In this document: positions 3,836 to 40,696 of the stretch, piece by piece
Layout: the number at the start of each line of letters is the position of its first letter
How positions within the stretch are numbered: the stretch's first letter is position 1
Source of the DNA: a virus
Reading direction: 5' to 3' (one strand)
Length of the DNA: 64,000 nucleotides
IMG/VR virus record: IMGVR_UViG_3300033153_013649
Coordinates: 64,001 to 128,000 of that record
The notes under the pieces: generated by a model
Databases searched by the model: none
Told to the model about the DNA's origin: nothing
Seen by the model: only the letters and a program-made list of their open reading frames with translations
Position numbers and translations under genes: made by a program

Positions 3836-4039
3836 ATGAATTTGAAATATAATTATATTGATTTGAATGAATTTAGTATTTTTTTGACTAAAACTATAGA
3901 TGAATCAGAAAAACTTAAAGAAATAGTTGAACAGATTAATTGGAGATATGCAGATGAAAATAAGCTGCAATTAATAATAAAAATCTCTTGCCTTGAACAA
4001 AGACTTGCAGAATTGAGAAATAAAATCCAAAGGAGTTAA
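3836..4039 (+). CDS. hypothetical protein
   Basis: ORF in operon spacing. Confidence 0.55.
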   Translation: MNLKYNYIDLNEFSIFLTKTIDESEKLKEIVEQINWRYADENKLQLIIKISCLEQRLAELRNKIQRS

Positions 4040-4040
4040 T

Positions 4041-4304
4041 ATGTGGATGGAAATTATAGGAATATCTACCCCTCTGATAGTTATACCTCAAATAATACGA
4101 ATATTAAGAAGAAAATCGGCTGAAGATATAAGTAAATGGTTTTATGTTTTGCTTTTATTTTTTCAAGCAAATTGGTTTAGATATGGAATAATAATAAAGG
4201 ATGTACCTTTAATTCTCAGTGGAGGTATTTCTTGTATTTCTTGTTTAATTGTATTATTCTTTTGTTTTAAATATACTCTCTATAAAAAACGGACATATTT
4301 TTGA
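4041..4304 (+). CDS. SemiSWEET/PQ-loop family 3-TM transporter
   Basis: IPQIIRILRRKSAEDIS, WFRYG and DVPLI; three hydrophobic helices in 87 aa. Confidence 0.85.
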   Translation: MWMEIIGISTPLIVIPQIIRILRRKSAEDISKWFYVLLLFFQANWFRYGIIIKDVPLILSGGISCISCLIVLFFCFKYTLYKKRTYF

Positions 4305-4332
4305 TTTTAAATTATTATAAAGGGGATAAATT

Positions 4333-4668
4333 ATGTACGAAGAAATGATATCAAATCCTTCCTGGGAATGTAAACGATTACTTATTGAAATATTTGAGAA
4401 GGGACTTAGAAATTTAGTTGCAAAGGGAGATACTAATTGGGATACTTTAAGTGCTAGAAGTCATGTTATTAATGCAGTAATACGTTTTAGAGATTTTGAA
4501 AATCTCATTTATTGGGAAGAGAATATGTGTAAAGATATAGAAGGAAATTCCTCTTTAGTTAATTTTTCAGATGAAGAATTGGATCTATTAGTAGACGGTA
4601 TAACATCAGCAGTGTTTGCATATTATCAATTAATAAAACAAAAAGGGAAAATAGATGAACAATGCTAA
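4333..4668 (+). CDS. hypothetical protein
   Basis: ORF with AGGGG RBS. Confidence 0.6.
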   Translation: MYEEMISNPSWECKRLLIEIFEKGLRNLVAKGDTNWDTLSARSHVINAVIRFRDFENLIYWEENMCKDIEGNSSLVNFSDEELDLLVDGITSAVFAYYQLIKQKGKIDEQC

Positions 4669-5143
4669 TTTCGAAACTTTCTTTTTAGGAGAAAAAGAGA
4701 AAAAATATCAAATTATGGGGGCTAGTGTTGTAGATACTTTAATTGATGAAATTCCAAACGACGGAAAATTTTATGCTCTTTCGTATGAAGATAGAGCTTG
4801 GAGATTGTCGAAAAGAGTTCATGGAAGTATTGAAAAAAAAGAAGAAATTAAACTCACAACAGGTTTTACTTTTCGCCATTTTTCAATGTCAAAAAACGAT
4901 AAGAAATTTAAAATTTATTTTCCAGGAACTTTAATACTATGCCCTTCTGGATTTAATTTAGAAGGGGGAACAAATTATTCAGATGGTTCTTCGAAAGTAT
5001 TATGGTTGGGCCAGAATTCTGAAATTCAAACTGTATCTTATTCTGGAGATATTAATCAGGGGGTTTATCATCCGCTTGGTTGTATAATTCAATCGGGGAT
5101 TATGTTATTTCGTCCTTCTCTTCCGACCTTTGAATTTATATAA
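4655..5143 (+). CDS. hypothetical protein
   Basis: ORF overlapping the upstream stop. Confidence 0.6.
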   Translation: MNNANFETFFLGEKEKKYQIMGASVVDTLIDEIPNDGKFYALSYEDRAWRLSKRVHGSIEKKEEIKLTTGFTFRHFSMSKNDKKFKIYFPGTLILCPSGFNLEGGTNYSDGSSKVLWLGQNSEIQTVSYSGDINQGVYHPLGCIIQSGIMLFRPSLPTFEFI

Positions 5144-5151
5144 AAATAATG

Positions 5152-5180
5152 TTGACAAACTATTATAAGATTTAGTATAT
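5152..5180 (+). promoter_or_regulatory. sigma70-type early promoter
   Basis: TTGACAAA..TTTAGTATATT. Confidence 0.8.
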
Positions 5181-5201
5181 TATATTTTAAAGGAGAAAAG
5201 A

Positions 5202-5789
5202 ATGTCTAATATATATGCGTTTACAGATTTTGAAACAACAGGGGTTAACCCTCTTGTTGATCTTCCGATTGAGATAGGAATAATTTTTACAGATTATAAT
5301 TTTAATATTCTTACTTCGTACGAAGCGCTTATTCGTCAAAAAAAGGTTTTAGTTAGAATTAACGGAATTCCGAAATGGAAACCAGAATTCAGAGAAGCTT
5401 TCGAAGTTCATAATATTTCCCCAGAAGAATATATCAAAAAAGCAAAACCTCCTCAAGCTGTTTGTACTGAAATAAGAATGTTTTGTCAATCTTTATCGAA
5501 AAATCCTTCTAAAGAAATATATATAGTTTCAGATAATCCGTATTTTGAACAAACTTTTATACGTAAACTTTTTGGTCAATCTCAAACTCCTTTTCCTTTT
5601 CATTATAATGCAAGAGGAACTTTGATGATTACTGATCTCGCGGGCGTACGCTCGCACGCGCATACACATAGAGGATTAGAAGACATCAAGGGAACTTATA
5701 TGGATTTTATTGAAGCGTGTAAAAAATTAAATCTGCTTAAAGAAGAAAAAGAAATTTTCAAATTAACGAAAGGAGAAATACTTGGCTAA
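5202..5789 (+). CDS. DEDDh 3'-5' exonuclease
   Basis: DFETTG, IEIG and HRGLEDI motifs. Confidence 0.85.
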   Translation: MSNIYAFTDFETTGVNPLVDLPIEIGIIFTDYNFNILTSYEALIRQKKVLVRINGIPKWKPEFREAFEVHNISPEEYIKKAKPPQAVCTEIRMFCQSLSKNPSKEIYIVSDNPYFEQTFIRKLFGQSQTPFPFHYNARGTLMITDLAGVRSHAHTHRGLEDIKGTYMDFIEACKKLNLLKEEKEIFKLTKGEILG

Positions 5790-6315
5790 GAAAAACAAAT
5801 GTAAAGATTTAGAGATAAAAGACGTATATAAGGATATCCATCTTAATAATTTACTGCATGCGGGAGATTTAGATGATATAAAAGATCCTCTTCAAGAAAT
5901 GCTTAATCTTCAAAAGAAACTTCAGAAACATATAGCAAAGTCAAAACCAGAATATCAAAAATTATTCGGGAAAGATCTTGGTCCGAAAATGACAGTTACT
6001 AATATGGCTTTATTTTTTATGTTTCAGAATCAATCTATGCTAGATGAGCAACAAGAAGAATTAGAAGCTATCGGTGGGGAAAGATTTGGAAATGCTTCTT
6101 GGAAATATTGGAAGAAAGATCATAAAAATGCTCAGTCTCTAAGATTCATTGACCTTTCTCCGGAAGAGATTCTTGAAGCTAAATATGAATGGATTGATTC
6201 TTGGCATTTTATGATGAATAAAGCAATAGCTCTTGGTTTAACTTCTCAAGAAATAACTAATTTATATTTCGCAAAAAACGCTGAAAATATAAGAAGACAG
6301 AACGAAAATTATTAA
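5782..6315 (+). CDS. dCTP/dUTP pyrophosphatase (T4 gp56-like, all-alpha NTP-PPase)
   Basis: DEQQEELE, WKYWKK, EWIDSWHF, LYFAKNAENIRRQ. Confidence 0.85.
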   Translation: MAKKNKCKDLEIKDVYKDIHLNNLLHAGDLDDIKDPLQEMLNLQKKLQKHIAKSKPEYQKLFGKDLGPKMTVTNMALFFMFQNQSMLDEQQEELEAIGGERFGNASWKYWKKDHKNAQSLRFIDLSPEEILEAKYEWIDSWHFMMNKAIALGLTSQEITNLYFAKNAENIRRQNENY

Positions 6316-6328
6316 TTAAGGAAAAAAT

Positions 6329-6520
6329 ATGAGTTCTATTAGAATATATTCTCCAATAGGAGAGGAACTTTTTTCTTCTGAAAAAGTAATAGAGATTGAA
6401 TATAAAGTTGATGCTGAATTATTCACGATTCAATTTGTTGATATAACAGAGGAGAAACGTCAGGAATATATTTTTAAAGGAAGAAATCTTATAATTCAGG
6501 AAAAGAGAAATGTCAAATAA
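6329..6520 (+). CDS. hypothetical protein
   Basis: ORF with RBS. Confidence 0.55.
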   Translation: MSSIRIYSPIGEELFSSEKVIEIEYKVDAELFTIQFVDITEEKRQEYIFKGRNLIIQEKRNVK

Positions 6521-7037
6521 TAAATATAAAACCCGAATATTAGCAGGGGAAACGTTTCTTAATAATTGTTATTCCCAGTTTTATATGAGAGAAACAGAAG
6601 AAGAGAGTCGTAGAAAAGCAAGGGGTTTTAAAGAATTAAAAGAGCATATTGAAAAAAACGGAATGATTCATCCACTTATTTGTTATTATGGTGATACAAA
6701 ACATCCATTTCTCGTTCATATAGGAATGAGGCGATTAGTAATATTAAGAGATTTAAAATATGAAAAAGCAAAAATAATTTTAATGGACTCCCCTAAAATT
6801 ATAGCAGAAGGAAAAAAGATTCCTGACTATGATTGTAAAAATTTAATTTATCATTCTATATTTGAAGGATTATTTCCAATTAGAACAGAAAAAGAACTTT
6901 TTAAATTTCATGGAATGGAATCTGATTTATATTTTCCAGCAAAAGATTGGAAGAAATTACCGGATGGACTTGTATTTATTAGAAATCATATTATATCTTA
7001 TGGATTAGAAAGTAATCTTAATTTTAAAAAGAAATAA
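6510..7037 (+). CDS. ParB/Sulfiredoxin-like N-terminal domain protein
   Basis: LKEHIEKNGMIHPLI...IGMRRL. Confidence 0.7.
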   Translation: MSNNKYKTRILAGETFLNNCYSQFYMRETEEESRRKARGFKELKEHIEKNGMIHPLICYYGDTKHPFLVHIGMRRLVILRDLKYEKAKIILMDSPKIIAEGKKIPDYDCKNLIYHSIFEGLFPIRTEKELFKFHGMESDLYFPAKDWKKLPDGLVFIRNHIISYGLESNLNFKKK

Positions 7038-7072: not shown

Positions 7073-7600
7073 TTGGAAACGAAAAAAAGTAATATAATTG
7101 GAATTACTGGTACTCATGGGGTAGGAAAATCTTATTTTGCTTTTGAAGAAGCTTTAAGACAGAAAGATTTAAATCCTATAGCAAAGATTACTTTAATAGA
7201 AGAACAGGGGATACTTGATAATCCATTTCCAATTAATAAAAGAGCACAAAATGAATCTCAGATGTGGGTAATGTGCGCAGAGATGATGCAACATTTTTTG
7301 AATTATGCAAACAAAAAAATCGATTTAATAATTACAGATAGAACTATATTCGATTGTATTCCTTATTCAATGGTAAACGGTTTACCATTTGCAAAAGCTT
7401 TATATGATATTACTAAGCATTTTGGATATATGTATAAAAAGATTTATATTTTAGATCCACGAAAAAGAAAATATGTTTTTGATAACGGAATAAGGTCAGT
7501 TGATAAAAATTACCGATCTGAAGTACATGAAAAATTTATAGAATTATTCAAAAGATTAAAAAATAACAATTATATAAAACATTATGAGGTAGTAGGATGA
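7073..7600 (+). CDS. P-loop nucleotide kinase-like protein (AAA_28/NadR-like)
   Basis: GTHGVGKS Walker A, ITDRTIFD, DNGIRS. Confidence 0.75.
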   Translation: METKKSNIIGITGTHGVGKSYFAFEEALRQKDLNPIAKITLIEEQGILDNPFPINKRAQNESQMWVMCAEMMQHFLNYANKKIDLIITDRTIFDCIPYSMVNGLPFAKALYDITKHFGYMYKKIYILDPRKRKYVFDNGIRSVDKNYRSEVHEKFIELFKRLKNNNYIKHYEVVG

Positions 7601-8277
7601 GATTTATAAATCCGAGTTTTTCAATCGAAGATGAGAAATATCTTGATCCTATTAGAATAATGAAACTTATTGAACGAGCAGGAAGAAATTGTTATAAATC
7701 AGAGAAAAAGATAACAAAGGATTCTTATATCAATTTTATTAAAATGCTCGTTCAGAATTATAAGCATCTTTCTGTAATTGAGCATGGGAATATAACAGTA
7801 AGATTTATATGTAATCGAGGATTTACTCATGAACTAGTTCGTCATAGATTAGCAGCTTATTCTCAAGAATCAACAAGATATTGTAATTATTCTAAAGGAA
7901 AATCCCCTCATATTACTTTTATAATTCCTTCAATATATCAGGATATTCTAAAACCTGGAGAATATGATTTTGATTGTTGGTTTAGTAATGAATTTTCTGA
8001 AACCCCTGGGTTAATTGATTGGATATTAGCGATGGCGTCAGCAGAAGAAAGTTATTTTACTTTAATTAATAACGGTTTAAAACCTCAAATTGCTCGAGGG
8101 GTATTACCAATTGATTTGAAAACTGAAATTGTAATGACTTGTAATCTTCGTGAATGGAGGCATATTTTTAGTTTAAGAACTTCAGAAGCAGCTCATCCTT
8201 CAATGCATCAACTTATGAGGCCGCTTCTTAAAAAGTTTAAAGAAATGTTTCCTCCAATTTATGAAGATATAATATAG
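7597..8277 (+). CDS. thyX: FAD-dependent thymidylate synthase
   Basis: HLSVIEH, HELVRHRLAAYSQESTRY, ARGVLP, NLREWRH..LR. Confidence 0.95.
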   Translation: MRFINPSFSIEDEKYLDPIRIMKLIERAGRNCYKSEKKITKDSYINFIKMLVQNYKHLSVIEHGNITVRFICNRGFTHELVRHRLAAYSQESTRYCNYSKGKSPHITFIIPSIYQDILKPGEYDFDCWFSNEFSETPGLIDWILAMASAEESYFTLINNGLKPQIARGVLPIDLKTEIVMTCNLREWRHIFSLRTSEAAHPSMHQLMRPLLKKFKEMFPPIYEDII

Positions 8278-9774: not shown

Positions 9775-9803
9775 TTGACAAATACGAAATAATTTAGTAT
9801 ATT
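9775..9803 (+). promoter_or_regulatory. sigma70-type early promoter
   Basis: TTGACAAA..TTTAGTATATT. Confidence 0.8.
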
Positions 9804-10073: not shown

Positions 10074-10622
10074 ATGAAAATTCTTGTAAATAGCCTATTA
10101 TTTTATGGTATAATATTTGATGAAAATGTTATTTTTGAAGATGCTTTTGTATCTGAAGAGTCTTATCTTGATTATGAAGATTTCGTAGAGAAATGCCGAA
10201 AAAATGATGAATTTATTTATGAAAATTCTGATTTTCTAAAGATATATTGGTATCATAAATTAGGTTATAAATTCGAACGTTATTCGGAAATTTCTATTCC
10301 AGAGGATAAAGGAAAAATTACTTATGAATGTAAAAGAAAAATTGCAGAGAAATTTCTTAAAGAAACAGGGATTGCTTTTGATGTGTTTCGTATGAGTTTT
10401 GGCCCTGAAGGTTTAATTATTGGAATAAAAGATACCTTTCTTAGAGTAGATTCTGGTGATTCACCTATTGATATATTTAAAGAATTCAAAAAGAAAGAAA
10501 TTAATTTTCCGGGGGATCAAAAGAAAAAAACCTTTTGGAACAGTCAAATTAGGGACTTTTGTAATGTTATTGGTCTGAAATTTGTTCAACCGAAATGGTT
10601 ACTTACTTTATATTGTTATTAA
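10074..10622 (+). CDS. hypothetical protein
   Basis: ORF. Confidence 0.6.
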   Translation: MKILVNSLLFYGIIFDENVIFEDAFVSEESYLDYEDFVEKCRKNDEFIYENSDFLKIYWYHKLGYKFERYSEISIPEDKGKITYECKRKIAEKFLKETGIAFDVFRMSFGPEGLIIGIKDTFLRVDSGDSPIDIFKEFKKKEINFPGDQKKKTFWNSQIRDFCNVIGLKFVQPKWLLTLYCY

Positions 10623-10641
10623 AAGGAGAAAAATAGAAATT

Positions 10642-11103
10642 ATGTTAAAGGAGAAAGATTTAAACACTTATAGAGAAATTCTTAAAGTGTTTCAGAAAAG
10701 AAGTACTTGTAAATCTCTAAAAGTATCAGCAATAATTATTAAAGACGGTCGTATTATTTCAACTGGATGGAACGGAGTACCTTCTGGATTTAAACATTGT
10801 GAAGATAGAGATTGGTCTGATTGTAAAAATCATGATGAATGGAGAAGGAAGCATTTAGAATTCCAAAAGAAATATGAAACCCATGCCGAAATGAACGCGA
10901 TTGCGTTTGCTGCAAAAAATGGAATTAAAACCGAAGGATCTGTAATTTTTTCATCAATTTCTCCCTGTAATGATTGTGCAAAATTAATTCTTCAATCGGG
11001 TATTAAAGAGGTTTATTATATAAAAAAATATGATCGACCTGATTTTGATGGATTATCTTTGCTTAAAAAAGCGAAGATAAGATGTTATAAAATAGAAGAA
11101 TAA
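10642..11103 (+). CDS. cd: dCMP deaminase
   Basis: RSTC, STGWNG, HAEMNAI and SPCNDCAK Zn motifs. Confidence 0.93.
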   Translation: MLKEKDLNTYREILKVFQKRSTCKSLKVSAIIIKDGRIISTGWNGVPSGFKHCEDRDWSDCKNHDEWRRKHLEFQKKYETHAEMNAIAFAAKNGIKTEGSVIFSSISPCNDCAKLILQSGIKEVYYIKKYDRPDFDGLSLLKKAKIRCYKIEE

Positions 11104-11119
11104 TATTATTAAATTTATG

Positions 11120-11148
11120 TTGACAAACTATTTTTAAATTTAGTATAT
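11120..11148 (+). promoter_or_regulatory. sigma70-type early promoter heading the modification cluster
   Basis: TTGACAAA..TTTAGTATATT. Confidence 0.8.
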
Positions 11149-11152
11149 TTTA

Positions 11153-11425
11153 TTGAAGAGAAAAAATGGGAAATTCAGAATGAAACAATATCTTAAAAAT
11201 CTCATAAAAGAACAACAACAAAATTTTCTTTTTATTATAGGTCTTTGGATCGGTATAATTGTAGCAAGTATTATATTTAGAACTAGTTGGGAATATGTAG
11301 TAGTTTGCTTGATTGGATTTGTTTGTAATATTATGGCTATATTTGTTATTGCGTTTATTATAAAGGTTGTTGTATGGTTTTTGCAATGTATCTTTTTAAG
11401 GAAAAGAGGAAAAAATGAGTATTAG
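11153..11425 (+). CDS. small 2-TM membrane protein
   Basis: Two hydrophobic stretches. Confidence 0.6.
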   Translation: MKRKNGKFRMKQYLKNLIKEQQQNFLFIIGLWIGIIVASIIFRTSWEYVVVCLIGFVCNIMAIFVIAFIIKVVVWFLQCIFLRKRGKNEY

Positions 11426-12041
11426 TTGCTTTCTTTCTAATAATGTAATTATTTCTGTAATGGGGCCAAGAAATACAGGAAAATCAACTTTAGTAGAAGC
11501 TTTACGATTAAATACAGGTATTAAAGTTAGAAAATTTCCCTTTAAAGATTATGTTACAAAAATTTTAGACAGAAAATCAGCAGAAACCGGAGGATTTTCA
11601 CTAGGAAAAGATTTACAGCTTTATTCTTTAATTAGTGATGGTTTGATTAAAACCCCTCTTATTCTTGATCGAGGAGATTTTTTTACTTCTTCTGTATATG
11701 GACTTTTAGATCAACGAATTTCTAGAAAAGTAGCCATAGAACATATTGAATATATGACAGAAAAATTTTTTCTTAGAGGGGATCCGATACCCGTTTATTT
11801 TATTTATTGTGAAATAGATGAATGTGTACCAGGAAACGAAATTCCAGAGAGGATGAGGAAAGATTCTTGGGATGATATGAAAAATTGGAAAGAAGAATCA
11901 GATTTATATAAAGAGATGGTTGAGATTTTTGAAAATAAAGTTCAAGATAGAATAATTAGATATAAAAACAATTTCGAATTTGATGCTCTTCTAAATATAG
12001 TAGAAACTCTTAAAATGATCTTACCAAAAAATGAATACTAA
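11415..12041 (+). CDS. dNMP kinase-like P-loop protein
   Basis: GPRNTGKST; LILDRG..TSSVYG (thymidylate-kinase-like). Confidence 0.75.
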   Translation: MSISCFLSNNVIISVMGPRNTGKSTLVEALRLNTGIKVRKFPFKDYVTKILDRKSAETGGFSLGKDLQLYSLISDGLIKTPLILDRGDFFTSSVYGLLDQRISRKVAIEHIEYMTEKFFLRGDPIPVYFIYCEIDECVPGNEIPERMRKDSWDDMKNWKEESDLYKEMVEIFENKVQDRIIRYKNNFEFDALLNIVETLKMILPKNEY

Positions 12042-12708
12042 TGATTTTATTCCATACAAATATTTTGGATTAAAAGAAGCTTTTGAAGAAATATTTGAAA
12101 AACAGGGGAAATTGTTTTGGAAATATATAGCTTCAGAAACTTCTTATGAAATAAACTCTCCGAAAGATTTGGATTTTGATATTAATATTTATCAAGATCA
12201 ACAATTATTTAAAGATATGCTTCAAATTAGATTCACAGAAGAATTAACTGAAGCTACAGAAGATTTAAAACATTATGATCATTTTGAAGAAGAAATAATA
12301 GATGCTTTTAATTTTTTAGTTTCGACCTATATTCTTTATGGCTGGGGAATCAAAGATCTTAAAAAATGGAATTCTAATAAGAAAATATTATATACTAATC
12401 TTCGATATATTTCTTCTTATTCAGAAATTAAGTCTAAAGAATTTTTAATCAAATTAGAAAATGAATTAAAAATCAAGATGTATGAAATAATAAAAGCAGT
12501 AGGGGAAACGTGTAATCTTCTTAAAAATAGGCCTTGGCGGGGAACTCAATATCTTGTAGATTTATATAAATTCGAACCCAGATTTAGAAAAATATGGATA
12601 GAATTTAATGATTTATGTAATGAATTATTAATAAGTCCTAAACGATTATTTGAATTATGGTCTTTGAAATTTCAATGTAACTTGTATAGGATAGATACAA
12701 ACTATTAG
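12031..12708 (+). CDS. all-alpha NTP pyrophosphatase (dimeric dUTPase/MazG-like)
   Basis: EELTEA, EEIIDAFNF, LLKNRPW and K..CN..R...NY ending. Confidence 0.75.
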   Translation: MNTNDFIPYKYFGLKEAFEEIFEKQGKLFWKYIASETSYEINSPKDLDFDINIYQDQQLFKDMLQIRFTEELTEATEDLKHYDHFEEEIIDAFNFLVSTYILYGWGIKDLKKWNSNKKILYTNLRYISSYSEIKSKEFLIKLENELKIKMYEIIKAVGETCNLLKNRPWRGTQYLVDLYKFEPRFRKIWIEFNDLCNELLISPKRLFELWSLKFQCNLYRIDTNY

Positions 12709-12774: not shown

Positions 12775-14208
12775 ATGTGTGGTTTTGCTTTAATAAAAGC
12801 AAATATAGAAAAAGGAAATCTTATTCGTCATAGAGGCATAGAAAAATCTTCGGTTCCAATGAATTCAATTTGTGATAGCGATAAATTCATAGGATTAAGA
12901 GATTATTATATTGCTGTTCATCATCGTCTTCCTATTCAAACTATTGAAGGGGATGAATGGAAACAACCAATTGAAGTAGATGATAATGTTTGGATGATGT
13001 ATAATGGAGAAATATTTAATTATGATACTAATTATTATGAAAACGACGTACATTATTTAGTCGAATTTTTTAAAAATATTAATTGGCTAAAATTTTTTCT
13101 TGATAGTTATTACAGGAGAAGATTTCTTTTAGAGATAAATTCATGGGATGGATTTTGGTCTATTTTCTTAATTGATAGTAAAAATGGAATAACTGTAACT
13201 TTTACTGATCCTCTTGGAAAGAAACAACTTTATTATAATGATGATTTTGAATTTGCTTCTGAATTGAAACCTCTTATTATAGAAGACAGATGTAATTATG
13301 ATTTAATATTTAAATCTCAAATTGCAAAATGGGGTTATAATACAAACGAGAGAACCCCTTATAAAAATATTAAAAGGATATTACCAAATACGATTTATTT
13401 ATTTTTTTCAGGAAGAACAGATTTAATTACTACGATTCCGAATTATTATTCTTTTGAATCTAATAATATTACACCTTTTAGATTGAAAGCTCTTCTTGAA
13501 AAATCAGTAGAAAGAAGATTACTTTCTAAAAAATATAAAATAGGGGTTTTACTTTCTGGAGGATTAGATTCTTCTATAATAGCTACTATTCTAGAAAAAC
13601 GATTTGAAAAAACTGATGTTATATATTATTCTGTTGATAACGAAGAAAGAAAATATGTTGAAATTCTTCAAAAAGAATTAGGAATAAAGGTTAATTTCTT
13701 TGAATATAAAATAGAAGATTATGATCTTTATAATGTATATGTTAATGATTACGAATTTCCTATTGATCTTGGGTCTTGTATTCCTCAATTAAAATTATTT
13801 GAAAATATTAAAGAAAAAATTGTACTTTCTGGTGATGGAGCAGATGAATTATTTGGAGGTTATAGAAGAATTGATGAATATGATTCTCAAAGATCAGATA
13901 TATTTGATGAATTATCTTATTTTCATCTTCCTAGATTAGATCGAGCTTCAATGAAATATACTATTGAACTTAGGAATCCTTATCTTGGACATGATATAAT
14001 TCGCAAAGCTTTGAAATTACCGATAGAAGAAAGAAAAAATAAAGCAATTCTTAAAAAGGAATTTTCTAATGACCTTCCACCTGAAATAATTTTTAGAAAA
14101 AAACATCCTCTTAAAAATCCTGAAATTGTTAAGGATAAAATAGCTTATAGATTCAAAGTTTTAGAAGCCTTTTATGGAGAAAATAACGGAAGATATTTCA
14201 ATGTCTAA
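12775..14208 (+). CDS. asparagine synthetase B-like glutamine amidotransferase/amide ligase
   Basis: N-terminal MCG (Ntn Cys), HRG, YNGEIFN, D.LGKKQLY, LSGGLDSS, SGDGADELFGGY. Confidence 0.92.
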   Translation: MCGFALIKANIEKGNLIRHRGIEKSSVPMNSICDSDKFIGLRDYYIAVHHRLPIQTIEGDEWKQPIEVDDNVWMMYNGEIFNYDTNYYENDVHYLVEFFKNINWLKFFLDSYYRRRFLLEINSWDGFWSIFLIDSKNGITVTFTDPLGKKQLYYNDDFEFASELKPLIIEDRCNYDLIFKSQIAKWGYNTNERTPYKNIKRILPNTIYLFFSGRTDLITTIPNYYSFESNNITPFRLKALLEKSVERRLLSKKYKIGVLLSGGLDSSIIATILEKRFEKTDVIYYSVDNEERKYVEILQKELGIKVNFFEYKIEDYDLYNVYVNDYEFPIDLGSCIPQLKLFENIKEKIVLSGDGADELFGGYRRIDEYDSQRSDIFDELSYFHLPRLDRASMKYTIELRNPYLGHDIIRKALKLPIEERKNKAILKKEFSNDLPPEIIFRKKHPLKNPEIVKDKIAYRFKVLEAFYGENNGRYFNV

Positions 14209-15205
14209 ATTTCGAAATGAAATAGGTATTACTGAAAAATTGAGAATGATTTCAGACGAAATTCCAAAGGATTATCATTGTACTTGTAAATATTGTTCTT
14301 CTGATAATTTTATTGGTGAAATATATGATTGGTCTATTAATAAGTATTATTCTCAATTAGCTAGAAATAAATATTACTTTCCTCTTTCAAAGGATATAAA
14401 AAAACATCTTTGTCCTGGACAGTGGCAAGGTTATCGTTGGGCAGTTCAAAATTTTACTGATTCCGGAGACTGGACTTTCGATCCAACTGTAGGAACAGGA
14501 ACCTCTATGATTGAATCGTTGATTCATAGAAGAAACGCAGTTGGAATAGAATTAGAATATTCTTCTATTACTAGAATGAATTTAAATCATATTTATAATA
14601 CAATTGGAAAATCTGTATCTTATAAAACAAATCCTCTTGGGGTTAGTCATCTTATTAATGGAAATGCTCGAGATTTGAAAAAGTTATTAATCGATCTTGA
14701 AAAAAGAATATTCGGAACTTTTAATTTTCGATTAATTATGAATGGACCTCCTTATCCAATATTATCAGGGAAAAATGTTTCTTCGGATGCGCCAGAGCGT
14801 AAGATTTTTAAAGATAAAAATGGCAAGAAAGTAACTAAAATATCAAATGCAAAATTAGAAAAAGATCAATCCTTTGATTATCAAAATCCAGATAATTTTG
14901 GATCTAAAAGGGGAGAAGAATATTGGAATTTTATTACTAAAATGTATCTTGATTGTATTCCATTTATGGTCAAAAAGGGGAAGATGGTAATAATTATTAA
15001 AGATCTAGTTAATAAGAAAAAACCTTATCTTCTTCATAAAAAGGTTATAGATAATATTTTAAATCAGACAGATTTACTTAAATATTATGGATGGTATATT
15101 CATAAGCATATTCCAAGAACTATGTTTATGAATACTTATCCAAAAAGATTCCCTGAAGTAAAAATTCCTTTATATCAAACGGCAATAGTATTGGAAAAAA
15201 TATGA
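14201..15205 (+). CDS. N4/N6-type DNA methyltransferase-like protein
   Basis: FDPTVGTGT (motif I), GIELE, NGPPY (motif IV variant). Confidence 0.8.
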   Translation: MSKFRNEIGITEKLRMISDEIPKDYHCTCKYCSSDNFIGEIYDWSINKYYSQLARNKYYFPLSKDIKKHLCPGQWQGYRWAVQNFTDSGDWTFDPTVGTGTSMIESLIHRRNAVGIELEYSSITRMNLNHIYNTIGKSVSYKTNPLGVSHLINGNARDLKKLLIDLEKRIFGTFNFRLIMNGPPYPILSGKNVSSDAPERKIFKDKNGKKVTKISNAKLEKDQSFDYQNPDNFGSKRGEEYWNFITKMYLDCIPFMVKKGKMVIIIKDLVNKKKPYLLHKKVIDNILNQTDLLKYYGWYIHKHIPRTMFMNTYPKRFPEVKIPLYQTAIVLEKI

Positions 15206-16413
15206 AGATATTAGGAATTCATGCTGGTGTAGGATCGATGATAATTCCAGCTAAAGAATTAAGATTGAATATAGTAGGAAATATTGAACCTCGCCGAATA
15301 TTTCATTATGGAGAACCCTTTCAAAGGTATTTTAATGCCCCAATGTATAAGAACTTTGATGATGTTTTTGCATTTCAAAATCAAGATATTCATATTGTAA
15401 TTGGTCATCCGGAATGCGGAGACTTTTCTAATTTAAAAATTAAGAAAAGTAATACGTATACCGTAAATGATATACGTCAATGGATGAAGATGACGCAAAT
15501 TATTAACCCTTTATATTTTGTTATGGATAATCTTCCTGGGGCAATGGATAAAATTACAGCAAAAGAATGGAACAAAATGTTTCCCGATTATGATATTTTC
15601 TTTGAATATATTTCAAATTATGATTATGGAAACGTTCAAAGGAACAGAAATCGATTATTTGTTATTGGAGCAAAAAGATTTTTAAAATTCACTTTTATCC
15701 CAGGAGGAAATCTTAATAATCTTACAACTAAAGAGGTAATATCGGGTCTTACAGAAAAAGACAAAAATCACGTTTTTCTGAAACCTGACGATGATATTCG
15801 TGGTTGGTCAACTTATAATATTCCATTACCGAAATTTCGTAATATAATTTCTAGGAGGATTAAATTTAAGGAATTCCAAAAATATTTGAATAGTATTCCA
15901 AGTAGTGAATACAATAAGAAATTATGGTACATAAACAAAAAAAATGAAAAGAAGAAAAGACCTATTTTATTAGTTACTTTAGATAAACCTTCTTATCTTT
16001 TAACTGGATCTAGTGGATTTGATAATATTTGGATTGCTGTAGAAAATAGACCGTTTACGATTAGAGAAAAATTGAGGATTCAAGGAGCTCCGGATGATTT
16101 TGTTCTTTATCCAACTGAATATGATTCAGGGGGAATTGTTCGGATGAAACATAATATACAAGTTGGTAAATTTATGCCAGTTCAAGCTTGTAGATATATT
16201 TTAAATCAGATTATGATTAATTGGTATAAAGATTCTCCGATAGAAGAAAAAAAGCAAACTGAATTAGAAAAAAATTATTTCAGGAGAACTATTTTTTCTT
16301 CTTCAATTAACAAGGCGAAAAGAGAATATTGTAATATAACTAATTATACTGATCAAGATAAAGCTTGTAAGTTTTGTTGGCTTAAAAAAGGATGTGTAAT
16401 TAAATTACATTAA
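15202..16413 (+). CDS. atypical C5-cytosine methyltransferase-fold enzyme
   Basis: AGVGS, GHPECGDFS, MDNL (for ENV), QRNRNRLF, RPFTIRE.LRIQG.PDDF, QVGK (for Q.GN); Cys-rich tail. Confidence 0.85.
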   Translation: MKILGIHAGVGSMIIPAKELRLNIVGNIEPRRIFHYGEPFQRYFNAPMYKNFDDVFAFQNQDIHIVIGHPECGDFSNLKIKKSNTYTVNDIRQWMKMTQIINPLYFVMDNLPGAMDKITAKEWNKMFPDYDIFFEYISNYDYGNVQRNRNRLFVIGAKRFLKFTFIPGGNLNNLTTKEVISGLTEKDKNHVFLKPDDDIRGWSTYNIPLPKFRNIISRRIKFKEFQKYLNSIPSSEYNKKLWYINKKNEKKKRPILLVTLDKPSYLLTGSSGFDNIWIAVENRPFTIREKLRIQGAPDDFVLYPTEYDSGGIVRMKHNIQVGKFMPVQACRYILNQIMINWYKDSPIEEKKQTELEKNYFRRTIFSSSINKAKREYCNITNYTDQDKACKFCWLKKGCVIKLH

Positions 16414-16427: not shown

Positions 16428-16456
16428 TTGACAAAATACATTTAATTTTGTATATT
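16428..16456 (+). promoter_or_regulatory. sigma70-type early promoter
   Basis: TTGACA-17-TATATT. Confidence 0.75.
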
Positions 16457-16724: not shown

Positions 16725-17456
16725 ATGAGAATATTTCGTGATTGTGAAGAAATGATAAAAGAAATAGATCGAGAATTACTTGTTTGTGGTATATCTTGTC
16801 CCGTGAAACATTATCAGAATAAAAAACTTCATGGCGAAGATCAAATTACTAAAGAATTAATTGGTTTAGGGTTTGTGATTGGGAAGCCTTTAAAAAAACG
16901 AGATGAAATGATTAAATTCGTTTTTGGGGACGAATGGGAAAAAATTAAAGCTTATTGTGAACAAGAACATTTAGATCGAGTTTGTGGTAAGCCATTAAAT
17001 CCAGGGCATTCATATAAAATCCGTCAGGATATGTGGCAAAAGTTTATGATTAATGACGAAACAGCTTTTGATTATACTTATTCCGAGCGTATATATTGGC
17101 AGATAGAAAATGTTTTGGAAGCTTTAAAAGAAGATAAACATACCCGTCAAGCTGTTATTCAAGTTTTTCAAGCTCAGATTGATAATAAGAAATTCGGTGG
17201 AGACACTCGAATTCCTTGTTCAGTAGATTGGCAATTTTTAATTAGAAATAATCGTTTAAATGTTATTTATCACATGAGATCGAATGATTATTATGGTCAC
17301 TTTCCTATTGATATATATTTATCAGCTTCTTTGATGCAATATTTTCGATCAAGATTGTTGGATTTTTATCCAGATCTTAAAACAGGGGCTCTAACTTATT
17401 TTGCTGGCAGCTTACACGCATATAGTTGGGATTTAAAAGAACACGTTGTGTTTTAA
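16725..17456 (+). CDS. thymidylate-synthase-fold enzyme, probably dCMP hydroxymethylase (gp42-like)
   Basis: YTYSER, TRQAV, IPC catalytic Cys, MRSNDYYGHFPID with Asp at the Asn177/Asp179 specificity position, GSLHAY. Confidence 0.8.
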   Translation: MRIFRDCEEMIKEIDRELLVCGISCPVKHYQNKKLHGEDQITKELIGLGFVIGKPLKKRDEMIKFVFGDEWEKIKAYCEQEHLDRVCGKPLNPGHSYKIRQDMWQKFMINDETAFDYTYSERIYWQIENVLEALKEDKHTRQAVIQVFQAQIDNKKFGGDTRIPCSVDWQFLIRNNRLNVIYHMRSNDYYGHFPIDIYLSASLMQYFRSRLLDFYPDLKTGALTYFAGSLHAYSWDLKEHVVF

Positions 17457-17472
17457 GAGGAGGAAATTTATA

Positions 17473-17850
17473 GTGAGAGTAATAATTGCTGGGAGTGAGT
17501 ATTATTTAGATGGAAGAGAATTTGACGATTATTTTTTCGTATCTAAAACTATAACTAAATCTCCATTTCGTCCTTATATTAAGGAAATAATAGTAGGAGG
17601 AGCAAAAGGAGTTGATTCTCTTGGTGAAAGATATGCTAGAGAACATTCTTTTAAACTTCGAATTATTGCAGCTGATTGGAATAAATATGGGAATAGTGCT
17701 GGGATGATAAGAAACAGAGAAATGGCTGAAAATGCTGATGCTTTAATTGCTATAAAATTACCCGATTCTAAAGAGATAGTTAATATGATTAAGGTTGCAG
17801 TAGATCATAATTTGCATATACTATCAATAACTTATAGGCTAGAAAAATAA
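17473..17850 (+). CDS. SLOG/YspA-like (DUF2493) protein
   Basis: VIIAGS, GGAKGVDSLGE, ADWNKYG.SAGMIRN.EMA. Confidence 0.85.
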   Translation: MRVIIAGSEYYLDGREFDDYFFVSKTITKSPFRPYIKEIIVGGAKGVDSLGERYAREHSFKLRIIAADWNKYGNSAGMIRNREMAENADALIAIKLPDSKEIVNMIKVAVDHNLHILSITYRLEK

Positions 17851-31099: not shown

Positions 31100-31413
31100 A
31101 ATTTAAAGAAATATATGAACAGATAAATTACAAAGAAATCCACGGTCATGACCGAGTTGAATCAAATACTGTTGAATGGTACTTTCATAATTATGAACAT
31201 GGATATAAACACTGCATTGGTAGTGAAAAGAATCCTTATAAAATAAAACATATTAACGGAAAGCATGGTATTAATAAAAAATATGCTCGGGGGCACGGAA
31301 TTAATAGTAATCCTCAATGGTTTAAATTTACTAAAAAATTAGATGATCGTTGGTGGGATTTATCAACAGGTAAAAGAATTGAGATTTCAGAAGTACCCAA
31401 GGAATTAAAATGA
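31096..31413 (+). CDS. putative internal head protein
   Basis: N-terminus MKFKEIYE. Confidence 0.55.
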   Translation: MKFKEIYEQINYKEIHGHDRVESNTVEWYFHNYEHGYKHCIGSEKNPYKIKHINGKHGINKKYARGHGINSNPQWFKFTKKLDDRWWDLSTGKRIEISEVPKELK

Positions 31414-32120
31414 TAATTTTCCCTAGACGATGGAATATAGATTATTTTTCATTTACATTATTAGAATCTCTTTTTATTGAAGAAGGGGTAATTCAGAAAT
31501 TTATTGATATTCTTCGAAATATTTTAGAAGAATTAAAAATTAAAAATCTTGCGTATAGTGGAGGTATAGATTCTACAATAATACTTGCTTTATTAACTGA
31601 ATTATTTGGGAAGGGACATATAACAACTTATGTAATAGCTTCAAGGAAAAATCATCCTGACGTTTTATATTCTAAAATCGGTAGTAATTATTATGGTTCT
31701 AATCATGTAAAATTTATAGGGGAACAAATATATAATTCTATATATAAGCAATTTTTTAATATATTGTCTATTGATGAAATTATTTGTTGTGACGGCATTG
31801 ATGAATTTATGTGTGGTTATTATTCTCATCAGAAAGATCATAGGAAAACGTATGAGTTATCTATTAGAGATCTTGTTATAAATCATTTAATATCTCTTAA
31901 TTTGAATTCTGGTGTAGCTAAAGTTTTTTTACCTTATTTAGATGAAAAACTCATTAGATTAATGGCTAAGATTCCATTAAAATGTAAAGTGGATACTAAG
32001 ATTAGAAAAAAAGTTGTAGTAGAAATTGCTAGAAAACTTAATATACCTCAAGAGATTATAGAACGAAATAAATATGGTTTTTGTGATGCTTTTTTAATGA
32101 AAGATAAAGGAAGAAAATGA
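31410..32120 (+). CDS. asparagine synthetase C-terminal (PP-loop) domain protein
   Basis: AYSGGIDS, DGIDEFMCGY, LPYLD, R.KYGF; no glutaminase domain. Confidence 0.85.
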   Translation: MIIFPRRWNIDYFSFTLLESLFIEEGVIQKFIDILRNILEELKIKNLAYSGGIDSTIILALLTELFGKGHITTYVIASRKNHPDVLYSKIGSNYYGSNHVKFIGEQIYNSIYKQFFNILSIDEIICCDGIDEFMCGYYSHQKDHRKTYELSIRDLVINHLISLNLNSGVAKVFLPYLDEKLIRLMAKIPLKCKVDTKIRKKVVVEIARKLNIPQEIIERNKYGFCDAFLMKDKGRK

Positions 32121-34929: not shown

Positions 34930-35001
34930 GGAATCGTGGATCATTGGTAGATCACCTGTCTGTCGAACAGGTTTAAATGGGTTCGATTCCCATCGATTCC
35001 G
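34930..35001 (+). tRNA. tRNA-Asp(GTC)
   Basis: GGAATCG/CGATTCC acceptor; CCTGT-CTGTCGA-ACAGG; TTCGATT. Confidence 0.92.
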
Positions 35002-35037
35002 CTTCCGCAAACATATAAGTTTTTTATCAAATTTTTT

Positions 35038-35111
35038 GCTGCCGTAGCTCAAGAGGGTAGAGCGTCTCACTTGTAATGAGAAAGTTGGGGGATCGTGGCC
35101 TCCCGGTAGCT
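35038..35111 (+). tRNA. tRNA-Thr(TGT)
   Basis: GCTGCCG/CGGTAGC; TCTCA-CTTGTAA-TGAGA; atypical T-loop ATCGTGG. Confidence 0.88.
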
Positions 35112-35122
35112 CGAGAATTATT

Positions 35123-35200
35123 CTAGAAGTGAAGGAGTCTGGCTTTCCTTGTCCGCTTTGGAAGCGGGATATCTCGTCGGTTCGAATCCGGCCTTCTAGA
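35123..35200 (+). tRNA. tRNA-Pro(TGG)
   Basis: CTAGAAG/CTTCTAG; TCCGC-TTTGGAA-GCGGG. Confidence 0.9.
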
Positions 35201-35290
35201 CAAAGGTTTCGAGGGTTAAATCCTTGAAATTATTAATTTCTAAAATAAAACCCCTTAAGATTAATAGATCCGTAGACAACTACATAATTC

Positions 35291-35371
35291 GGAACGGCGT
35301 TCAACGGTGAGATAAGCTGACTGTAAATCAGTGGCCTACGTGCTTTGATGGTTCGAATCCATCCCGTTCCA
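35291..35371 (+). tRNA. tRNA-Tyr(GTA)
   Basis: GGAACGG/CCGTTCC; GCTGA-CTGTAAA-TCAGT; long variable arm. Confidence 0.9.
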
Positions 35372-35376
35372 CAATT

Positions 35377-35449
35377 TCCTGGGTAGTTTAATTGGAAGAA
35401 CGCTGCACTGTTAATGCAGATGATGAAAGTTCGATTCTTTCCCCGGGAG
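35377..35449 (+). tRNA. tRNA-Asn(GTT)
   Basis: TCCTGGG/CCCGGGA; CTGCA-CTGTTAA-TGCAG. Confidence 0.92.
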
Positions 35450-35457
35450 CTTTTATT

Positions 35458-35865
35458 ATGATAAAATATTTTAAAAAAAATCCTCATATTCTTAAAGCGA
35501 TAAATATTTTAGAAATAAATTATAGAGCTGGATCTGATATTTTATTTGGTATAAATAAATTCAAAGAATTATTTATTAATATTCAAAAGGAAGGAATAAA
35601 ATATCCTATAATTTGTGTTCTAGATATTAATAAAGATTTTAAAATAAGATTTGGTAATAGAAGAGTAATTATAGCAAGACTTCTAAGAATTAAAGAAGTT
35701 CCAGTTCTTTTATATTATAATAAAAAAGAAAAGGGAATTCTGCCTATTGATAATATAAAAGGGAGGACTGTTACTAAAGAAGAATTATGTATGTTCTTTG
35801 AAAACGATAAAAATATTCCTGGACTAAAATATCTTTTGGAGATTTTTAATGATAGTATATGCTGA
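35458..35865 (+). CDS. ParB/Srx-like protein
   Basis: IQKEGIKYPII...FGNRRVIIAR.L; start moved out of tRNA-Asn. Confidence 0.7.
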   Translation: MIKYFKKNPHILKAINILEINYRAGSDILFGINKFKELFINIQKEGIKYPIICVLDINKDFKIRFGNRRVIIARLLRIKEVPVLLYYNKKEKGILPIDNIKGRTVTKEELCMFFENDKNIPGLKYLLEIFNDSIC

Positions 35866-36334
35866 ACCGGAAGTTAAAGAAGTGATATTAAGATTTTCTT
35901 TTAAAAAAGAGAATTATAATAAAACTCAAACTCTTGATATAGAAATAAAGAATTATAAAAAGTTAAAAAGTAATATTATAAAATACGGAATAGTTCATCC
36001 TTTAATTGGTAATAGTTTATATAAAAATAATAGAAATTATCCTTATGTTATAAAATATGGAATTAGAAGATTTCATATTGCAAAAGAACTCGGTATACAA
36101 AGAATTCCAATATTGATATATGATTTACCTATATTAGAAGAATCCAAGAAGATAAATTGTAAATATAAATATAAAATCAATAATATGGAAGATTTATCAA
36201 AGTTATTTAAAGCTCATATTTCTAATTATCAAGTTCCAGATAATCTTATTACTCCAGGGTATGAAAATATTCCAGCAGGATTAAAAATTTTTATTAATTT
36301 ATATAATACTTATCAAGAGGATTTATTCAAATGA
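35849..36334 (+). CDS. ParB/Srx-like protein, MIVYAEP family
   Basis: GIVHPLIG...YGIRRFHIAKELG. Confidence 0.75.
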   Translation: MIVYAEPEVKEVILRFSFKKENYNKTQTLDIEIKNYKKLKSNIIKYGIVHPLIGNSLYKNNRNYPYVIKYGIRRFHIAKELGIQRIPILIYDLPILEESKKINCKYKYKINNMEDLSKLFKAHISNYQVPDNLITPGYENIPAGLKIFINLYNTYQEDLFK

Positions 36335-36789
36335 TAGTATACGCTGAACCAGATCCTTGGAAAGCTCAACCTAAAGATATATTTCGAAAAGATTTTAATA
36401 TCGGTGGTCCGACAATGACTTCGAAAGAAGGATTTCAGAAATTAGAAAATAATATCAGAGAAAATAGAATGTTTCATCCTTTGATAGGAATAGCTTTACA
36501 AAATTGTCCATGGATTATTCAAATGGGAAATAGAAGACTACTGATCGCTCGAAGATTAAAAATGGAAAAAGTTCCGATGATTATATATAGCCTTCCCCCT
36601 CTTGTACATCCTCGAGTGCATCCAAAACCAGGAACTTATATAAAAAGAATTAAAGATTTTGAAGAAATTACAGCTTTGTTTTGTAAGGAAGGATTAGATT
36701 TTCCCGAAGAGAGTCGACGCAGAGACGGAGTCCCGCATGGATTACAATTAATGAAAGATTTATTTAGAAAATGTGTTGACTTTGATTAA
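36331..36789 (+). CDS. ParB/Srx-like protein, MIVYAEP family
   Basis: MFHPLIG...MGNRRLLIARRL. Confidence 0.75.
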   Translation: MIVYAEPDPWKAQPKDIFRKDFNIGGPTMTSKEGFQKLENNIRENRMFHPLIGIALQNCPWIIQMGNRRLLIARRLKMEKVPMIIYSLPPLVHPRVHPKPGTYIKRIKDFEEITALFCKEGLDFPEESRRRDGVPHGLQLMKDLFRKCVDFD

Positions 36790-36867
36790 GTACTCGTAGC
36801 CAAGTGGTTTCACGGCAGCGGTCTGCAAAACCGTTATATATCGCGGGTTCGAATCCCGCCGAGTACT
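36790..36867 (+). tRNA. tRNA-Cys(GCA)
   Basis: GTACTCG/CGAGTAC; GCGGT-CTGCAAA-ACCGT. Confidence 0.92.
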
Positions 36868-36884
36868 CTATTATATTTCTAAAC

Positions 36885-36953
36885 GTGCCTGAGCTAAAAC
36901 AGCTAATAATATTTCAAATCTCGTGAAGGTGGGTTCGATTCCTCCCAGGCGCG
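36885..36953 (+). pseudogene. tRNA-like remnant with no clear anticodon arm
   Basis: GTGCCTG/CAGGCGC acceptor and GGGTTCGATTCC T-arm. Confidence 0.5.
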
Positions 36954-36974
36954 CAAAATTAATTAAAAAAGAGG

Positions 36975-37003
36975 TTGACAAACTATTATAGGATTTAGTA
37001 CAT
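36975..37003 (+). promoter_or_regulatory. sigma70-type early promoter
   Basis: TTGACAAA..TTTAGTACATT. Confidence 0.75.
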
Positions 37004-37018
37004 TATTATAAAAATTAT

Positions 37019-37155
37019 AAGGCATAGAGAGTTCCTTTTAATTATCACTCCCATAGAATAATACTCTCCGCCTTTAAATTTTTAGAGTAAAAACAAAAGG
37101 GGTTCCTATTTGAATCGATTGAGAGTCAACAATTACCCCTCGTTTGAAACTCTAA
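37019..37155 (+). promoter_or_regulatory. two tandem related RNA hairpin motifs in a 5' leader
   Basis: GAGAGT-TCCT...ACTCTC and AGGGGT-TCCT...ACCCCT with outer stems. Confidence 0.5.
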
Positions 37156-37173
37156 TAAAGGGGAAATAAAAAA

Positions 37174-39093: not shown

Positions 39094-39132
39094 TATAATA
39101 AATAATATCGTCTATTGGATTTAAAATTATAT

Positions 39133-39207
39133 GGTATTCGTAGACAAACAGGTAAAGTCGTTCGGCTGTGACCCGAATCAATATGGGTTCGAATCCCATC
39201 GAATACC
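39133..39207 (+). tRNA. tRNA-His(GTG)
   Basis: G-1 with C73; TTCGG-CTGTGAC-CCGAA. Confidence 0.92.
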
Positions 39208-39240
39208 CACCAAGAAGGTTAAAATTACAAAGAGAAAATT

Positions 39241-39537: not shown

Positions 39538-39556
39538 AATATATAGGAGTTTTATA

Positions 39557-40018: not shown

Positions 40019-40141
40019 ATAAAACCAAAGTTTCTATTTATTGTTCAAAGAATTATATTGTAATAATACGTGTTGGGTCTTCTCATTCGATTTCGATGAA
40101 GGGGAAGATCCAACTCGTTGAATTAATATGGTTTAAAGAAT

Positions 40142-40597: not shown

Positions 40598-40607
40598 AAA
40601 TAAAAAA

Positions 40608-40681: not shown

Positions 40682-40696
40682 CTAAACTAATAAAAT

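Follow-up and report, generated by a model that had tools for sequence, protein, structure and literature searches.

A conserved, modular phage gene block for predicted cytosine hypermodification combines a dCMP-specific thymidylate synthase homologue with an optional C5-methyltransferase-fold enzyme carrying lysine in motif X

The gene block

The DNA analysed here is a 64,000-nucleotide stretch (hereafter the window) comprising bases 64001-128000 of the IMG/VR record IMGVR_UViG_3300033153_013649, a complete phage record of 159,837 bp with terminal repeats. The phage DNA has a guanine-plus-cytosine content of ~28%, and the phage is distantly T4-like, with a B-family DNA polymerase N-terminal fragment ~33% identical to its cyanomyophage counterparts. 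The window contains a block of genes in which enzymes of a T4-style nucleotide pathway, among them a homologue of thymidylate synthase (TS) predicted to act on deoxycytidine monophosphate (dCMP), stand beside an AsnB-like amide ligase, an amino-methyltransferase-like protein and an enzyme with the fold of DNA cytosine-C5-methyltransferases, called the C5 enzyme below. The comparison of related loci robustly supports a phage system for cytosine hypermodification that is conserved and modular, builds on the T4-style nucleotide pathway and includes the C5 enzyme as an optional part. From the dCMP deaminase through the SLOG/YspA protein, every gene of the module lies on the plus strand:

10582-11103, plus strand: dCMP deaminase (Pfam dCMP_cyt_deam_1, 1.2e-21; PHROG 174)
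11415-12041, plus strand: P-loop protein of 208 residues, resembling deoxynucleoside monophosphate (dNMP) kinases (PHROG 761, thymidylate kinase, 5.9e-12)
12031-12708, plus strand: all-alpha nucleoside triphosphate pyrophosphatase, MazG/dUTPase_2-like (PHROG 12184; homologues in related loci match dUTPase_2)
12775-14208, plus strand: glutamine-dependent AsnB-type amide ligase of 477 residues, predicted (Pfam Asn_synthase, 8e-35, and GATase_7)
14174-15205, plus strand: amino-methyltransferase-like protein of 343 residues (partial N6_N4_Mtase match; motifs)
15202-16413, plus strand: DNA cytosine-C5-methyltransferase-fold enzyme of 403 residues (Pfam PF00145, DNA_methylase, 9e-14)
Between the C5 enzyme and the TS homologue, plus strand: Zn-ribbon reading frame of 62 residues
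16725-17456, plus strand: TS homologue of 243 residues, predicted to be dCMP-specific (closest solved relatives CMP/dCMP hydroxymethylases)
17446-17850, plus strand: SLOG/YspA protein

The pyrophosphatase may be a dCTPase, by analogy with T4 gp56. A second dUTPase_2-like pyrophosphatase, homologous to this copy, is encoded at 5782-6315, so that the phage has two. The reading frames of the ligase and the amino-methyltransferase overlap by 35 nucleotides and those of the amino-methyltransferase and the C5 enzyme by 4.

The C5-methyltransferase-fold enzyme

The translation of the C5 enzyme contains the motifs GVGS (motif I), GHPEC with Cys72 (15415-15417), MDNLPG, QRNRNR, TIREKLRIQGAPDDF (TIREKLRIQG) and QVGKFMPV. 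Motif X reads QVGK, with Lys323 encoded at 16168-16170, and the C-terminus carries a four-cysteine knuckle, CX11CX2CX5C. Every detail that the first-pass annotation had given for this reading frame, namely GHPEC, motifs VIII and IX, the QVGK lysine, DNL in motif VI and the Cys-rich tail, was found in the translation. An AlphaFold model with a predicted local distance difference test score (pLDDT) of 92.3 shows a two-domain DNA C5-methyltransferase; Foldseek placed M.HaeIII and M.HhaI at the top and CmoX (8YF3) at rank 9. The features of the PF00145 superfamily are present, i.e. two domains with a target-recognition domain and motifs I, IV (Pro-Cys), VI, VIII and IX, except for the Gly-Asn of motif X beside the cofactor methyl, which is replaced in the window (QVGK) and in the family (QTG[K/R]). 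Motifs and model together point to a catalytically intact, DNA-directed C5-transferase fold.

A basic residue at this site has a known counterpart. CmoA, CmoX and CmoY of Synechococcus phage S-B43 produce 5-carboxymethylcytosine and its glycine amide (PMC12783734; structure 8YF3). R350 of SpCmoX, at the position of Asn304 in HhaI, binds the carboxylate of carboxy-S-adenosylmethionine (Cx-SAM) and mirrors the engineered N374K exchange in M.MpeI (PMC12783734). A profile of 15 family members aligned with M.HaeIII over the full length (3.8e-29), and the Gly-Lys of the family fell on the motif X Gly-Asn. With a 44-member profile, the lysine fell on the arginine of the IGR motif in the CmoX homologue of the Streptomyces phage TurkishDelight, which adjoins a glutamine-type AsnB ligase and CmoA. 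The earlier proposal that the lysine occupies the N374K and CmoX-Arg position is upheld by these two alignments. The similarity to CmoX itself is remote, as the family profile scores 8YF3 at 1e-10 versus 3.8e-29 for M.HaeIII.

An exhaustive search yielded 316 family representatives, 77 of them below 1e-30. Nearly all scorable members have G-H-P-x-C-G in motif IV and Q-T-G-K in motif X. At the motif X site, the window enzyme and most members have Lys and a minority have Arg, with Ala, Gln or Asn being rare; an ordinary methyltransferase from the same match list has GGPSCQ and QVGN. Because QTG[K/R] and G-H-P-x-C-G recur in about 100 representatives, the motif X lysine is not a chance feature. 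The catalytic Cys, the acid-Asn-Leu of motif VI, QxRxR and the cofactor motifs (GxG with the acid of motif II and the Asp of motif III) are conserved throughout the family, and newly fixed, near-invariant residues include His69 and Gly73 beside the catalytic Cys and Arg31 after motif II.

A C-terminal fusion with the amino-methyltransferase is seen in many members, and in at least ten representatives (P0033, P0047, P0049, P0064, P0071, P0083, P0086, P0093, P0095 and P0096) an intein sits exactly at the catalytic Cys, with the N-extein ending in GHPE and the C-extein starting with CGxFS. Some of these inteins have DUF559/endonuclease inserts. A blastn search of the gene block against 50,697 cultured-phage records gave no match, and tblastn of the C5 enzyme against cultured phages gave two partial, N-terminal matches and no full-length member. 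The single match in a scan of GTDB genomes was a 4.3-kb contig of a Woesearchaeota metagenome-assembled genome, probably a mis-binned phage contig and hence no clue to the host. The C5-enzyme family is distinct and known only from metagenomes.

The ligase and the amino-methyltransferase

The ligase begins with MCGF, which places the N-terminal nucleophile at Cys2, and contains the PP-loop SGGLDSS (SGGLDS at 13555-13572); the MCG start and the PP-loop are common to the whole ligase family. It matches NCBIfam asn_synth_AEB at 4.9e-54, below the cut-off of that family. By these motifs it is predicted to be an intact, glutamine-dependent AsnB-type enzyme. It is 22% identical to the CmoY-type ligase of TurkishDelight and has the features of the glutamine cluster of CmoY-type ligases, being an AsnB homologue with an N-terminal Cys glutaminase and a PP-loop that is encoded beside a C5 enzyme. 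Away from the module, at 31410-32120, lies a 236-residue protein with a PP-loop (SGGIDS) and no glutaminase domain; it matches NAD_synthase as well as the C-terminal part of Asn_synthase.

In the amino-methyltransferase, motif I (DPTVGTGT, 14480-14503) precedes motif IV (NGPPY, 14741-14755), and the N-terminal part contains DYHCxCxxC. Its model (pLDDT 81.7) gave only generic Rossmann methyltransferase matches with template modelling scores of about 0.4; Trm11, MnmM and an Asn-amide N-methyltransferase were among them, all too weak to name a target. Searches of the kinase, pyrophosphatase and amino-methyltransferase sequences against solved structures gave nothing useful. The overlapping operon with an N-terminal-nucleophile asparagine-synthetase-like enzyme and an NGPPY amino-methyltransferase, as first annotated, is thus confirmed in its reading frames, overlaps and motifs. 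The window encodes another N6_N4 DNA methyltransferase at 57725-58312, short and CcrM/Dam-like, with SDPPY before DPFMGTGT; it is unrelated to the amino-methyltransferase of the module.

The thymidylate synthase homologue

The best solved relatives of the TS homologue are the CMP hydroxymethylase MilA and the dCMP hydroxymethylase of T4. Its Cys165 (17217-17219) is the equivalent of the catalytic Cys146, and the motifs IPCS and FPIDIY are present. TS homologues can be read from the diagnostic positions 143, 169 and 177 (PMC13326640): position 143 is Leu in thymidylate synthases and Asp or Glu in hydroxymethylases, Asn at position 169 marks the flavin-dependent 5-hydroxy type, and Asp at position 177 indicates cytosine specificity (PMC13326640). 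In the window these positions, in E. coli ThyA numbering, are occupied by Arg162 (143; 17208-17210), Asp188 (169) and Asp196 (177; 17310-17312). The enzyme hence shares the catalytic Cys and Asp177 with the T4-type hydroxymethylases, while it has Arg instead of Asp or Glu at position 143, and it differs from the 5-hydroxy-dCMP synthases of RB69/DLP3, which have Asn169. The Asp177/Asp169/Arg143 signature is shared by 38-39 of 39 relatives in a first set (Asp177 and Asp169 in 39/39 each, Arg143 in 38/39) and by 72/77 in a second. These residues suggest that the TS homologue is a cytosine-directed enzyme specific for dCMP.

A role as the phage's own thymidylate synthase was ruled out by Asp177 and by a separate ThyX at 7597-8277 (Pfam Thy1, 2.4e-44), an enzyme of flavin-dependent dTMP synthesis encoded apart from the TS homologue of the module, which is therefore an extra enzyme. 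It was also considered whether Arg143 serves as a binding site for a carboxylate that the ligase or C5 enzyme would provide; this was ruled out, as the signature also occurs in lineages that have neither of them and beside a glycosyltransferase. The latter arrangement is found in Clostridium perfringens phages, whose TS relative is 30% identical, has the same signature and follows a kinase, a dUTPase and a glycosyltransferase in that order. The glycosyltransferase slot of these phages corresponds to the position of the ligase, the amino-methyltransferase and the C5 enzyme in the window. In the cultured Clostridium phage CPAS-15 the four genes, ending with the Arg143-type TS homologue, lie in a row at 3991-6762. 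One further relative (L128, 8001-8747) carries RSSN, i.e. Asn at position 169 and thus the 5-hydroxy-dCMP synthase signature, on an Arg143 background.

Conservation and modularity

A neighbourhood survey of such GK/GR-type methyltransferases, as the first-pass annotation had proposed, was carried out with the C5 enzyme as seed and comprised 50 loci, namely the window, 45 IMG/VR loci and four fetched by protein look-up. At least 4 kb of sequence was available on either side in 30 of them, the well-flanked set. A TS homologue lay within 6 kb of the C5 enzyme in 29/30 well-flanked loci. The other neighbours in this set were the AsnB-like ligase (25/30), dCMP deaminase (23/30), pyrophosphatase (21/30) and amino-methyltransferase (12/30). 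The coupling to a dCMP-hydroxymethylase/kinase/pyrophosphatase module that had been noted in the window is therefore real and conserved. The amino-methyltransferase adjoins the C5 enzyme in 16 loci, small N-terminal P-loop kinase reading frames occupy the equivalent slot in 12/50, and the pyrophosphatase beside the TS homologue is kept in most. The phage backbones differ and include ~45-kb PolA phages, 60-105-kb phages and the 160-kb T4-like phage of the window. In L005 (9146-9436), L002 (6502-6783), L095 (6948-7409) and some 20 further loci, the pyrophosphatase or TS homologue has a small DUF6378 protein as its neighbour, for which no counterpart was recognised in the block of the window.

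Scanning IMG/VR with a TS profile gave 519 relatives; the best 80 of them were retained and fall into 38 lineages at 80% TS identity. Among these best 80 all four gene combinations occur, i.e. the TS homologue without either enzyme, with the AsnB-like ligase, with the C5 enzyme and with both. The TS-only lineages carry pyrophosphatase and deaminase. Examples of the ligase without the C5 enzyme include a lineage with 53 member phages of ~36 kb and a complete genome of 48,966 bp; a 92%-complete genome is among those with the C5 enzyme and no ligase. In 12 phages without the C5 enzyme, PF00145 had no match anywhere in the record, and neither had PF00733 in the record of the genome with the C5 enzyme but no ligase. 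One lineage (L060) has the amino-methyltransferase and not the C5 enzyme.

Compared with ligases of phages lacking the C5 enzyme, the window ligase shows 44-48% identity across 98% of its length; the range against ligases of phages that possess the enzyme is 46-50%. Since orthologous ligases occur, equally close, in phages without the C5 enzyme, the substrate of the ligase does not depend on that enzyme. The observed combinations show the ligase, the C5 enzyme and the amino-methyltransferase as independent tailoring modules, which would act on a common TS-derived base.

Source of the cofactor

No CmoA, the enzyme that makes Cx-SAM (TIGR00740), was found in the complete genome of the window or in 32 related records, 13 of these 33 being at least 90% complete. 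The phage CmoA of TurkishDelight, used as a positive control, scored 2.6e-25. The lack of a clear CmoA noted for the window in the first-pass annotation is thus borne out for the complete genome and its relatives. CmoX systems are different in this respect, with 4257 CmoA genes for 5615 CmoX sequences (PMC12783734). At 49150-49866, upstream of the DNA polymerase N-terminal fragment, the window encodes a generic class-I S-adenosylmethionine (SAM) methyltransferase (Methyltransf_11/25), the only one in the genome. It was rejected as a hidden CmoA, as its best NCBIfam matches were BioC, UbiE and ArsM, CmoA was outside the top 25 families, and the gene is not conserved in the relatives. A Methyltransf_25-type gene was entirely absent from 7/12 near-complete relatives.

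Promoter-like sites and tRNA genes

Two promoter-like sites lie within the block:

11120-11149, plus strand: promoter-like site, TTGACA-N18-TATATT, 5' of the gene run from kinase to C5 enzyme
16428-16456, plus strand: promoter-like site, TTGACA-N17-TATATT, 5' of the Zn-ribbon reading frame and the TS homologue

Together with a third site at 9775-9803 they have identical TTGACA and TATATT elements, 17-18 nucleotides apart, match at 11 of 12 positions and are all intergenic; the total number of promoter-like sites in the sequence is not above the shuffled expectation. The three sites may represent the early promoter type of the phage. With the sites at 11120 and 16428, the genes from kinase to C5 enzyme would form one unit and the TS homologue would belong to another, which is only suggestive. 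Elsewhere in the window 14 tRNA genes are clustered at 34930-48915; one of them, at 48677-48756, is an odd call whose anticodon has two bases.

Proposed function and alternative readings

The gene set probably replaces DNA cytosine with a decorated base. By analogy with T4, the dCTPase-like pyrophosphatase would yield dCMP, which the TS homologue would convert to a 5-substituted dCMP, most likely 5-hydroxymethyl-dCMP, and the dNMP kinase would forward the product for use in DNA; the supply of dTTP would be maintained by dCMP deaminase together with the ThyX of the phage. After replication, the C5 enzyme would flip a cytosine-type base, with Cys72 attacking C6, and with an adenosyl cofactor it would handle a carboxylate-bearing group held by Lys323. 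A SAM-type donor that carries a carboxylate is suggested by Lys or Arg at the Cx-SAM carboxylate site and by the retained adenosyl-cofactor motifs. The group would most likely be carboxymethyl from host-made Cx-SAM, placed on leftover unmodified cytosines or on sites freed from the TS-derived group. We consider the chances about even that the C5 enzyme is, in this way, an optional post-replicative tailoring enzyme for a carboxylate-bearing group within a T4-style cytosine replacement, and not the first step of a CmoX-to-CmoY pathway.

Several observations weigh against this proposal. With full replacement of cytosine by the TS pathway, C5 would already carry a substituent, and plain alkylation at C5 would be left without a substrate. 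An enzyme directed at the TS-derived base would account for the near-obligate TS linkage better than an enzyme for leftover cytosine. By the profile scores given above, CmoX is no nearer to the family than ordinary methyltransferases are, and none of the 33 records has CmoA, unlike CmoX systems. As there is no phage CmoA and 7/12 near-complete relatives are without a class-I methyltransferase, Cx-SAM would need to come from the hosts. The missing CmoA and the likely occupation of C5, which the first-pass annotation had given as caveats, have become the main points, and together with the tie to the TS homologue they pull toward an action on the TS-derived base.

In such a reaction, the addition of Cys72 to C6 of the TS-derived base, likely 5-hydroxymethylcytosine (5hmC), would activate the exocyclic carbon, and the hydroxymethyl would be exchanged or extended with a carboxylate-bearing group held by Lys323 and the conserved His69. 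C5-methyltransferases can remove or substitute the hydroxymethyl group of 5hmC in vitro. The position of the C5 gene between pyrophosphatase and TS homologue, which is the glycosyltransferase slot in the C. perfringens phages, is consistent with this reaction, as are the independence of the C5 enzyme from AsnB and CmoA, the near-obligate TS linkage and the near-invariant His69, Gly73 and Arg31. It is without natural precedent, however, and the retained adenosyl-cofactor motifs point to a SAM-type donor and not to a free nucleophile; we regard it as rather unlikely. Similarly doubtful is a natural, non-CmoX transferase directed at the TS-derived base that uses Cys-C6 covalent catalysis on 5hmC in DNA and an adenosyl cofactor to attach a carboxylate-bearing side chain without a Cx-SAM synthase, with the ligase and the NPPY methyltransferase acting independently, so that the phages would differ in their combinations of cytosine bases. 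The side chain could for instance be the aminocarboxypropyl group that ordinary SAM supplies in diphthamide synthesis.

The first-pass annotation had proposed that the C5 enzyme installs a carboxyalkyl group and that the ligase then amidates it. As a self-contained CmoX/CmoY-like pair, the C5 enzyme would carboxymethylate unmodified cytosine with host Cx-SAM, the ligase would form 5-carbamoylmethylcytosine with ammonia from glutamine, and the amino-methyltransferase would be accessory. Such a pair agrees with the basic residue at the Cx-SAM carboxylate site, with the overlap of the three genes in the window and with the presence of AsnB in most well-flanked C5 loci; glutaminase-domain AsnB homologues form the second-largest ligase cluster associated with CmoX (PMC12783734), with TurkishDelight gp123-125 as an example. 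The comparison of loci did not support this two-step idea, though. Orthologous ligases accompany the TS homologue in records with no C5-methyltransferase gene, including the 48,966-bp complete genome and the 53-phage lineage, the C5 enzyme also occurs without AsnB, CmoA is never present, and the TS homologue is the stricter partner (29/30 versus 25/30). A self-contained pair is therefore improbable. Where a phage lacks the C5 enzyme, the ligase might amidate a carboxylate carried by the TS product; more speculatively, it may adenylylate the hydroxymethyl group for displacement by ammonia, a reaction for which the AsnB family offers no precedent.

An ordinary SAM-dependent 5-methylcytosine methyltransferase directed against restriction, with no special role of the lysine, appears highly improbable. 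All catalytic motifs are in place and M.HaeIII and M.HhaI are the closest solved relatives, but Lys or Arg is fixed in about 100 divergent representatives where ordinary relatives keep Asn, and there is no reason for an anti-restriction enzyme to track the TS homologue in nearly every well-flanked locus. Moreover, wild-type CmoX takes only Cx-SAM, and its R350N variant takes neither donor (PMC12783734).

Comparison with known systems

In the T4 hydroxymethylcytosine pathway, gp56 dCTPase, gp42 dCMP hydroxymethylase, gp1 kinase and cd deaminase act before the glucosyltransferases. The module has the same nucleotide-level enzyme set as T4 and the 5-hydroxycytosine pathway of RB69/DLP3 (PMC13326640), with Asp177 and with tailoring genes adjoining the TS homologue. 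It differs from T4 in Arg at position 143 instead of Asp or Glu, and from RB69/DLP3 in Asp at position 169, which is not of the 5-hydroxy type. Tailoring would fall to a C5-methyltransferase fold, an AsnB-type ligase and an amino-methyltransferase in place of the glycosyltransferases of T4.

With the CmoA/CmoX/CmoY system and the TurkishDelight cluster the module shares a phage-borne, cytosine-directed C5-methyltransferase fold with a basic motif X residue and a neighbouring AsnB-type ligase. Unlike CmoX, the window enzyme has Lys and not Arg, and GHPEC in place of SPPC (GSPPC in TurkishDelight). Its family has neither CmoA nor ParB neighbours, and the dCMP-specific TS homologue is its near-obligate partner; the ligase is independent of the C5 enzyme. 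Fusion to an NPPY methyltransferase and interruption by an intein are both common in the C5-enzyme family. The Asn-to-Lys change at motif X is that of the engineered M.MpeI N374K, the equivalence running via the motif X Asn of M.HaeIII, whereas the lysine of the window is natural and fixed across the family. Literature searches found no description of the module, and the published CmoX search would have missed the family because its filter was SPPC plus Arg.

Significance

Whether a phage evades a given restriction or CRISPR defence depends on the hypermodifications of its DNA, and these have also yielded tools for epigenome mapping. The module is present in dozens of phage lineages with several unrelated backbones and unites two routes previously known only apart, namely T4-type cytosine replacement at the nucleotide level and a C5-methyltransferase-fold enzyme with a carboxymethyltransferase-type change. 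It provides a natural Lys-type enzyme for comparison with the engineered N374K tool, and a TS homologue whose active site, with Arg143, is new to the literature; the C. perfringens phages are a possible culturable model for its subfamily, and their gene row predicts an unreported glycosylated cytosine. There is a real chance of new chemistry in the module, and the mix-and-match gene sets of these phages predict several novel bases.

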